Below are positions 21,111 through 22,381 of a DNA stretch of 22,381 nucleotides, one piece after another. Each line of letters starts with the position of its first letter. Position 1 is the stretch's first letter. The notes under the pieces were generated by a model, which made no database searches, had not been told where the DNA came from, and saw only the letters and a list, made by a program, of their open reading frames with translations. The stretch covers positions 1 to 22,381 of IMG/VR virus record IMGVR_UViG_3300006204_000424. One strand, 5' to 3'. Made by a program: the position numbers and the translations under genes. This DNA is from a virus. Lineage: Duplodnaviria; Heunggongvirae; Uroviricota; Caudoviricetes.

Positions 21111-21653
21111 TATGATGAAGAAACCGAAGAGTTTATCGGGAATATTGAAGAACTTTCTGGTAAAATTGCAGATTTGACAAAAACCGCGTCTACTCCTGGC
21201 GGTATAAGCTTATTTACAGATGAAGCAAAAACAGAATATAAATCTACATATCAATTATTAAAAGAAATAAGTGAAATCTATGACCAACTTACAGATAAAG
21301 AACAAGCTGGTCTTCTTGAAGCATTGGCAGGGAAAAGGCAAGGACAAATAATTGCTGCAACTATCAATAATTTTGAAGCGGCTGAAAAAGCATTGGTTAA
21401 TATGGCCAATAGTGCAGGATCAGCAGATGATGAAATGTCAGTGATTATGGATTCACTCGATTATAAGATTAATCGGCTATCTGAAACAGGTGTTTCAGTA
21501 TCCCAAAACCTATTCCAACGTGATGATATGAAGTCAATTATTGATGTCCTTACTTCTGTAATGGAAGTTATAGATGCGGTCACTTCAAAAATTGGACTAT
21601 TGGGAACAATAGGTGTTGGAGCTGGATTATTTGCAGGATGGAAAAATGTCGGT
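21111..21653 (+). CDS. Tail tape measure protein, exon 3
   Basis: YDEETEEFIG...GGISLF...YKSTYQLLKEIS...LAGKRQ...GLFAGWKNVG. The end is set by the P1 pairing of the next intron. Exons 1-3 total 3201 nt, 1067 codons. Confidence 0.85.
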
Positions 21654-22381
21654 AGTCCTAAAATGTATGGACTCAATCATTATTGTTTTGATAAATGCCG
21701 ACAGTATGTTAGTTCTACTGGATACAGTAGTTTAGAACATACGGCTCATGAGATACATGAGTTTAAATGAACAGGCAATATGCTGGGAAAACGGTCAACC
21801 TCACACTACTCCCCTATTCTGGCGACAGAATAGGTTATAGTAAAAATGTGTGAACTCCGTGGGTCAGCAGGGATAGGACTCTTGCAGTCAAGCCCTCACT
21901 GTAGCGACAACCCTGAGTAAAAGTTAGATGCAACGCTGCTTTTATAAGATGCGCTCGATACTCCTGGCATGACAGGGCAATCCTTGACAGATTGTGAAAT
22001 ATGAAAATCTTATCTTTCACTCATGTATTTGTTGGACTCTTGTTACCAGAGGTGATAGGAAGGTAACAAAATACTTTTATACAAATGAAAATTTACCCTT
22101 GCCTAATATATTACGTGGTGTTTTTGGTCTAACTCCGTATACTATACCTCAAGGGGTATTAGTATGCCAGAAACAGCGGCTGTATCTGAATATCTGAAAA
22201 TGTTTCGGTCAGCAAAAAATCTTAACCAGACAGAGTTTGCAAAAGAAATCGGTTTCAGCAGAGCAGAAATAAGTTTAATAGAGCGGGAGTTAGTCGACCC
22301 AACATTACGTACATTAAAGAAAATTGCAGATTACATGGGAATTTCCATTTCTGAACTTCTGCAGGTAGAAACAGACGGTAC
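21654..22381 (+). ncRNA. Group I-like intron 3; 3' end not in the window
   Basis: P1 UGUCGGU (21647-53)/GCCGACA (21697-703) with U-G at the junction. P/Q elements ATGCTGGGAAA and TCAGCAGG, P5 with GCGA loop, P6 GGG/CCC, P8 GTAAAAGT/GCTTTTAT, then AAGATG. P7 is irregular and P3 has only 4 bp. Confidence 0.65.
22164..22381 (+). CDS. XRE-family helix-turn-helix transcriptional regulator, 3'-truncated (missing from the supplied ORF track)
   Basis: MPETAAVSEYLKMFRSAKNLNQTEFAKEIGFSRAEISLIERELVDPTLRTLKKIADYMGISISELL matches the HTH_3 pattern. RBS AAGGGG 7 nt upstream. Confidence 0.9.
   Translation, partial: MPETAAVSEYLKMFRSAKNLNQTEFAKEIGFSRAEISLIERELVDPTLRTLKKIADYMGISISELLQVETDG

Follow-up and report, generated by a model that had tools for sequence, protein, structure and literature searches.

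Bases 21654–26277 of the virus record most probably constitute a single group I intron in the tape measure gene (we put the probability at about 0.7), in which a ribozyme is followed by a bay of cargo genes and a 3′ tail docking on the ribozyme core, and which would be spliced from the late transcript. The window, that is, the whole stretch of 22,381 nucleotides analysed here, comprises bases 1–22381 of an 86,381-bp IMG/VR virus record, and the downstream DNA was read from the same record. The phage carrying this intron, denoted intron 3, is a temperate gut phage.

In the proposed scheme, the first ~420 nt would form a complete ribozyme, P1–P9, with the P3/P7 pseudoknot and the G-binding pair in P7, the next ~4.2 kb would be the cargo bay, and the last intron bases would dock on the core by P9.0 (AUACU with AGUAU), omega-G being the final one. 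In the lytic cycle, late transcription most likely continues across the bay; guanosine would attack after U21653, and omega-G26277 would then be used to ligate exon 3 (..GWKNVG) to exon 4 (IFRTITDD..). Splicing of all three introns would yield a tape measure protein of ~2,850 aa. The cargo genes, having their own signals, are probably expressed independently, e.g. in the lysogen. The tape measure is needed in only few copies per virion, thus inefficient read-through and splicing might be enough.

Tape measure gene and its exons

The tape measure gene is split into pieces, whose limits were set by three unbroken homologues, P0001, P0014 and P0057 (Table 1). In tblastn comparisons with these, exon 3 shows 69–81% identity and the matches end at 21653; Pfam PhageMin_Tail is matched by exons 2 and 3. 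The exon 3 frame extends for 39 codons into the intron through the 3′ strand of P1, P2 and P2.1, and is closed by the TGA at 21768–70, two bases before P3. In relatives this read-in is 0–51 codons long. Exon 4 lies within a 1,784-codon frame that opens at base 26242 of the record.

Gap 1 encodes a 283-aa HNH homing endonuclease at 19195–20043 (phrog_559, 1.7e-48). Gaps 1 and 2 match neither Rfam nor the profile of the intron 3 core. With nhmmer, this profile finds one copy in the 86-kb record and none in introns 1 and 2, L005 or L007; hence the three introns are not one family.

Table 1. Features of the tape measure gene and of intron 3 (positions in the record; omega-G, last base of the intron)
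Feature	Position	Strand	Sequence, partner or basis
Tape measure exon 1	up to 18999		..AWSRL; unbroken homologues P0001, P0014, P0057
Gap 1	19000–20194		between AWSRL and GYSS; bounded by unbroken homologues
Tape measure exon 2	~20195–20566		GYSS..MRIRG; unbroken homologues
Gap 2	20567–21110		between MRIRG and YDEE; bounded by unbroken homologues
Tape measure exon 3	21111–21653	+	YDEETEE...GWKNVG; tblastn of P0001, P0014, P0057
P1 5′ strand	21647–21653	+	UGUCGGU, last 7 exon bases; pairs with GCCGACA 21697–21703
Group I intron 3 (proposed)	21654–26277 (4,624 nt; window part 21654–22381)	+	fold, P9.0, resumed frame
Hairpin in P1 loop	21654–58 / 21669–73	+	AGUCC/GGACU; fold; stem covaries
Internal guide sequence	21687–21703	+	P10 part 21687–96; P1 3′ strand 21697–21703
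P2	21712–38	+	MFE fold, compensatory changes
P2.1	21745–61	+	MFE fold, compensatory changes
P3 5′ strand	21772–21775	+	CAGG; partner CCUG 21912–21915
P4	21781–86 / 21864–69	+	RNAalifold, MFE fold
P5 extension	21791–21860	+	includes GCGA-capped hairpin 21813–34
P6	21870–95	+	RNAalifold, MFE fold
P7 5′ strand	21899–21906	+	C[U]G[U]AGCG; partner CGCUCG 21952–57
P8	21917–21945	+	RNAalifold
P7 3′ strand	21952–57	+	pairs with 21899–21906
J7/9, P9.0 5′ strand	21958–62	+	AUACU; pairs with last five bases before omega-G
P9 hairpin	21963–76	+	MFE fold
Pseudoknot-like element	22037–22069	+	CUCU..UUGUUACC..AGAG..GGUAACAA; ribozyme/cargo border
XRE regulator, two HTH domains, 165 aa	22164–22661	+	Pfam HTH_3 1.9e-23 (two stretches); PHROG transcriptional regulator
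AAA_15/AAA_21 ATPase	23206–24720	+	best PADLOC matches NsnB 5.9e-62 and AriA 1.9e-34
289-aa partner, overlaps ATPase gene	24717–25586	+	no known family
Zinc-ribbon protein, 119 aa	25806–26165	minus	AGGAG ribosome-binding site, TTGATT-17-TATAAT promoter
P9.0 3′ strand	26272–76	+	AGUAU, then omega-G 26277
Tape measure exon 4	starts 26278		IFRTITDD...; resumed tape measure frame

Ribozyme core

A complete group I core folds from 21654–22075 of the window: P1, P2, P2.1, the P3/P7 pseudoknot, P4–P6, P8 and P9. An earlier sequence-only reading of the window had described most of these elements, and they are recovered here. The 7-bp P1 with its 43-nt loop and the hairpin inside the loop are present at the same coordinates, 21647–21703; the 5′ splice site follows U21653, which forms the U21653.G21697 wobble at the cleavage site. 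The stem of the loop hairpin covaries (AGGGA/UCCCU and others) around a kept UAAAAUGU loop. P4–P6 and P8, described as well formed, are backed both by the MFE fold and by compensatory changes. P7 indeed carries an extra base, U21902, beside G21901–C21956, the presumed G-binding pair. Its 5′ strand is separated from P3′ by five bases, ACAAC (21907–11), leaving no P7.1 (as the reading had it) and no P7.2. Subclass IA, the usual type of phage group I introns, has P7.1/P7.2 between P7 and P3′; the intron 3 core, with ACAAC only, falls outside that definition.

Among the P9-like hairpins mentioned in that reading was UUGUUACC/GGUAACAA, which is found at 22043–50 / 22062–69. It is a part of an H-type pseudoknot-like element kept in many family members, not in all (L028 has none). 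In the alignment as read by eye, both stems seem to covary, e.g. UAAUAUC/GAUAUUA in L023 and GUUCC/GGAAC in L018, and the third loop is kept among relatives (GAUARGAAG-like).

The unconstrained MFE fold of 21647–22075 gives P1, P2, P2.1, P4, P5, P6, P8 and P9 with z = −3.8, and none of 100 shuffles folds equally well. A 16-mer probe from the P6/P7 region matched 27 viral contigs, 24 of which carry the same element at the same tape-measure codon. RNAalifold was applied to 19 non-identical copies among the related phage loci (about 25) and produced 55 pairs, 34 of them with compensatory double changes, which cover P1, P2, P2.1, P3, P4, P6 and P8. P1 covaries with the last six bases of the exon (GUUGGU/GCCAAC, GAUGGU/GCCAUC, AUCGGU/GCCGAU, GCUGGU/GCCAGC, UUCGGU/GCCGAA). 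The long-range P3 occurs as CAGG/CCUG, GGGA/UCCC, GCCU/AGGU, GUCU/AGAU and GGAA/UUCC, with 3 to 11 double changes in each of its four pairs (RNAalifold columns 203–206 / 402–405), and each of the seven outer pairs of P8 has 3 to 12. Compensatory changes in P2 and P2.1 are seen even between this phage and its closest relative L030 (ACUG/CAGU vs GAUG/CAUC). At the splice site L030 has GGC followed by A, and the guide G is changed to A, so that the U.G is replaced by C.A.

Since the 16-mer probe itself fixes the 5′ strand of P7, relatives were also sampled by protein. This sample consists of 63 loci, eight of which carry this intron family according to the nhmmer profile. In its members P7 covaries, being AGCG/CGCU, AAUG/CAUU (L003, L079) or ACUG/CAGU (L113, with the closing pair swapped). 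The G21901–C21956 pair is invariant across all members compared, and the first bulge of P7 is U or A. The core had been called non-canonical; what stands of this is the extra U21902, which is a real bulge conserved in this subclade, but restricted to it, within an otherwise orthodox group I core: the divergent L112 and L113 do not have the second U and show the textbook single-bulge geometry, C/G[A]G...

These helices bear on a rather different reading, in which the ribozyme does no useful splicing here and two proteins are made, one from exons 1–3 with a 39-aa read-in tail and a separate one of 1,773 aa from the AUG at 26275. We consider this rather unlikely. All core helices are intact and, compared to the nearest relative L030, they change in a compensatory manner, which speaks against this reading; the points that depend on the AUG and on homologous proteins are taken up below.

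Rfam searches gave no group I match at the gathering score or at E<=10, including a search with a 541-nt slice, and no group I or group II match in any of the three gaps of the tape measure gene. For intron 3 the miss reflects the reach of the model, not a structural feature. No match was obtained by blastn of the region against phage records. On the whole, intron 3 is well supported as a group I structure, whose splicing reaction is predicted.

The 3′ splice site

The tape measure frame resumes 4,624 nt downstream, at base 26278, immediately behind a conserved omega-G, and the reading frame is kept across the join. The sequence-only reading had placed the 3′ splice site beyond the cargo genes, in a large cargo-bearing intron, and had suggested looking downstream for an exon preceded by a G and by a P9.0/P10 match. 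The continuation of the record supports this placement: exon 4 follows omega-G and a covarying P9.0, while the P10 of this copy is weak.

In nine loci with downstream sequence, AGUAYG↓AUAUUC or a variant of it (the arrow marks the predicted splice site) directly precedes the resumed protein, and G is the last intron base in each of the nine loci whose 3′ end is known. P9.0, formed by J7/9 and the last five bases before the final G, has 4–5 bp and covaries: AUACU/AGUAU, GAACU/AGUUC, GGACU/AGUUC, GUAC/GUAC. P10, formed by the first bases of exon 4 and the guide upstream of the P1 strand, has 9–10 of 10 pairs in L020, L025, L028 and L034, with compensating differences. In this phage's copy it is near the chance level, because the guide reads GAUAAAU vs GAAUAU in relatives.

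The weak P10 would suit the two-protein reading, and so would the in-frame AUG directly before exon 4. Most exon 4 homologues in protein databases indeed begin with M at the AUG containing omega-G, this start being kept in most members of the IFRTITDD subfamily. However, in this phage the ATG has no Shine-Dalgarno sequence upstream of it. Further, the AU of this AUG is also explained by pairing with AUACU in P9.0, and it becomes UC where J7/9 is GAACU. Among nine relatives sampled by DNA, five end the intron with the codon ACG or TCG, which is not a start, hence exon 4 there is left without a start codon.

The hexamer AGUAUG occurs six times in the intron vs 1.8 expected, so cryptic 3′ sites are possible. 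One copy, in UUAGUAUG, coincides with the start of the XRE gene. A proximal 3′ site after G22166, the G of the XRE start codon, would join exons 1–3 in frame to the regulator, giving an alternative or cryptic product, and the six bases that precede 22167 match those at the distal site exactly. Given six copies of the hexamer, one at a gene start is unremarkable, and we judge it a chance occurrence. No P10 is possible with CCAGAA, the XRE ATG is preceded by a normal ribosome-binding site, AAGGGG, and the XRE-like cargo gene of L023 is without the motif. Use of this proximal site is thus highly improbable.

The ~4.2-kb cargo loop was searched for a closing helix. The best candidate, 11 bp including G.U pairs, was rejected, as it is no better than those in shuffled sequence. 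The intron contains a terminator-like hairpin with a U6 tail on the plus strand (25587–25615) and, after the antisense gene, a second long hairpin; late transcription must read through both. Such hairpins would be natural in the two-protein reading. They are also consistent with a split intron, in which the transcript with exons 1–3 and the core ends at the internal terminator, and a second transcript, which would start in the cargo or in the 3′ tail, brings the tail and exon 4, the two being joined by P9.0, P10 and omega-G. The plus-strand terminator-like hairpin followed by an antisense gene, the loop without a long-range closing helix and a weak plus-strand promoter-like site at 26130–26159 fit such trans-splicing. 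On the other hand, promoter-like sites are no commoner here than in shuffled sequence, and in this phage two RNAs would be held together only by ~5 bp of P9.0 and a near-absent P10. Moreover, the short members of the family (722–1,100 nt) share the same ends and need no trans step, and IStrons of the same layout splice in cis (PMC4227781). We therefore regard trans-splicing as improbable, and retain splicing in cis of one long RNA as the predicted course.

Intron-less alleles

An uninterrupted reading frame through the site is seen in 23 of the 63 protein-sampled loci. The predicted ligated products of G000, L004 and L006 can be aligned gap-free with eight unbroken homologues; for instance, the L004 junction KNFG↓NIKTWFNDLGKVQ corresponds to KNFG-SIKTWVSELGKVQ in the unbroken L069. 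P0057, of 1978 aa, is colinear with exons 1–3 and also has a match to exon 4 (E = 4e-07). Thus intron-less alleles encode one continuous protein, contrary to the two-protein reading.

That reading could refer to the database homologues of exon 3, of which 118 out of 120 called proteins end within about 50 aa past the site. These, stopping 0–51 residues beyond it, are gene calls running into inserted sequence. The sequence-only reading had listed homologues ending naturally near KNVG among the signs that would speak against the long intron; the 23 loci reading through and the colinearity of P0057 with exons 1–4 show otherwise, and its alternatives to the long intron, a split or a decayed one, appear less likely.

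The exact spliced or intron-less junction of this phage had no matches in viral contigs, nor in metagenome contigs with a 23-mer probe. A 19-mer junction probe matched 23 metagenome contigs, all by chance, none showing tape-measure similarity.

At the same codon, L005, L059, L066, L089, L098 and others have unrelated inserts, with frames ending in KSIA*, KNFD*, ..CFEYALHA* or RPKM..., in none of which does the core profile find a match. L007 has a covarying P1 (UUACU/GGUAA). The exon 3/4 codon may be a hotspot for several intron lineages.

Cargo genes

Between the core and the 3′ tail there are four genes, on both strands (Table 1). The first is the XRE regulator, whose start at 22164 agrees with that in the sequence-only reading and which matches Pfam HTH_3. 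The ribosome-binding site and the promoter of the antisense zinc-ribbon gene lie within the last 110 nt of the intron. No transposase families are found among the cargo proteins, whose matches are to HTH_3, AAA_15/AAA_21 and zinc-ribbon families.

The ATPase resembles components of two defence systems, Menshen (NsnABC) and PARIS (AriAB). Neither identity was accepted, since the defining partners, NsnA and NsnC or AriB, are not matched. The 289-aa partner has no family match in PADLOC, Pfam or PHROG, and atlas and family searches gave no informative relative. The gene is therefore filed here only as an AAA_15 ATPase with a partner of no known family.

The overlapping pair of the ATPase and a 285–289-aa protein recurs on other contigs at 44–48% identity. 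In L121 it is situated directly upstream of a ..UAGUAUG↓AUAUUC.. junction opening a frame that starts with MIFTT, and hence sits in another such bay. The cassette (L118–L122) recurs with a divergent HTH–Peptidase_S24 (CI/LexA-like) regulator, and its neighbours there are GmrSD_N, PemK and Bro-N/ANT genes.

Three direct repeats YAACAATRYA, spaced by 27 and 24 nt, are found in the 3′ tail at 26201–26261 of the record (L002 10201–10261). There are 5 matches to this motif in 20 kb vs 0.9 expected, and the repeats, which overlap the promoter region of the zinc-ribbon gene on the minus strand, may serve as operators.

Size and cargo turnover in the intron family

The complete members of the family are 722, 765, 1,023, 1,089, 1,191, 1,699, 4,624 and 5,777 nt long, and other copies exceed 8–10 kb. 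The cargo differs among relatives. In every copy with a mapped 3′ end, a minus-strand gene starts 70–100 nt before the 3′ splice site, often, though not always, encoding a zinc-ribbon protein. On the plus strand, GmrSD_N (DUF262) proteins, Bro-N, HTH regulators and a nuclease are often found as cargo.

L058 (1–10000) is a close relative, with exon 4 84% identical, the same 3′ tail and zinc-ribbon gene, and more than 10 kb of cargo upstream. A Transposase_mut gene and a DUF3800 gene belong to this cargo, and a 69-residue piece of exon 4 is present as a duplicate (94% identical) within the bay.

Comparison with known introns

The closest layout is that of the IStrons CdISt1 and BcISt1 of Firmicutes, in which a group I intron is joined with an element of the IS200/IS605 or IS607 type (Tourasse et al. 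2014, PMC4227781). For CdISt1, splicing in one piece has been reported (PMC4227781). Like IStrons, intron 3 has at its 5′ end a complete ribozyme without a homing endonuclease, followed by kilobases of foreign genes, a short tail and the 3′ splice site (PMC4227781). However, the cargo of IStrons is a transposon, whereas no transposase is present in this intron; IStrons are scattered through many genes, whereas this element occupies one fixed codon of one gene family; and its genes lie on both strands and have promoters of their own. An IA2 ribozyme is reported for IStrons and drawn with an optional P7.1/7.2 (PMC4227781), whereas the core here is without P7.1/7.2.

Group I introns TMP-IVS1/2/3 of Bacillus cereus-group prophages (Tourasse and Kolsto 2008, PMC2504315) are likewise inserted in frame in tape-measure genes, several per gene, and different introns fit one site through P1 and P10 (PMC2504315). 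They are small IA1/IA2 introns, empty or with a single homing endonuclease, none reported to have multi-gene, defence-like or antisense cargo (PMC2504315). In Vibrio phage ICP1 the tape-measure gene is also split, the gene content of the intron varies between isolates while the flanks are constant, and splicing was demonstrated by RNA-seq and RT-PCR (Barth et al. 2023, PMC10448857). That intron encodes one or two HNH homing endonucleases, but no regulators, ATPase systems or antisense genes (PMC10448857). The IStron-like layout, together with the spliced ICP1 intron, favours cis-splicing of the late transcript.

According to the introduction of PMC4227781, group I introns of up to ~20 kb hold extra genes, RNAs or ribozymes; there, as is proposed for intron 3, the core tolerates many kilobases of inserted genes. 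This brief summary names no hosts and mentions neither defence or moron cargo nor a phage structural gene.

Implications

Group I introns in tape-measure genes (PMC2504315, PMC10448857) and 3′ cargo in IStrons (PMC4227781) are already known. In the literature searched, we found no phage group I intron described as a bay for self-promoted genes of a defence-like or antisense kind. The usual picture of phage group I introns is that of small selfish elements with at most a homing endonuclease. Intron 3 has no homing endonuclease but four unrelated genes, some of them defence-like, so that an essential gene also serves for the storage of accessory ones.

The ribozyme seems to provide a safe harbour, as anything between the core and the 3′ tail would be removed from the mRNA, and thus a tail operon that is essential and tightly packed can accommodate accessory genes over kilobases. 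We give even odds to a broader interpretation, in which the family is a cargo bay dedicated to exchange and fixed at a single codon of an essential late gene. There, temperate gut phages would carry and swap defence or moron cassettes that have promoters of their own, without any cost to the tail gene, and the conserved ends of the intron would serve as recombination handles for cassette swaps between phages. In this phage, such cassettes may be the XRE regulator, the ATPase pair and the antisense zinc-ribbon gene.

The long intron also explains why, in many gut phage genomes, gene callers place an island between two tape-measure genes. It is predicted to be a natural example of a group I ribozyme reaching a 3′ splice site 4 to 10 kb away by P9.0 and P10 only. 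As an exchangeable bay, it would be a new class of prophage accessory-gene hotspot and a place to seek new defence systems, the ATPase and 289-aa pair recurring in at least one other such bay.
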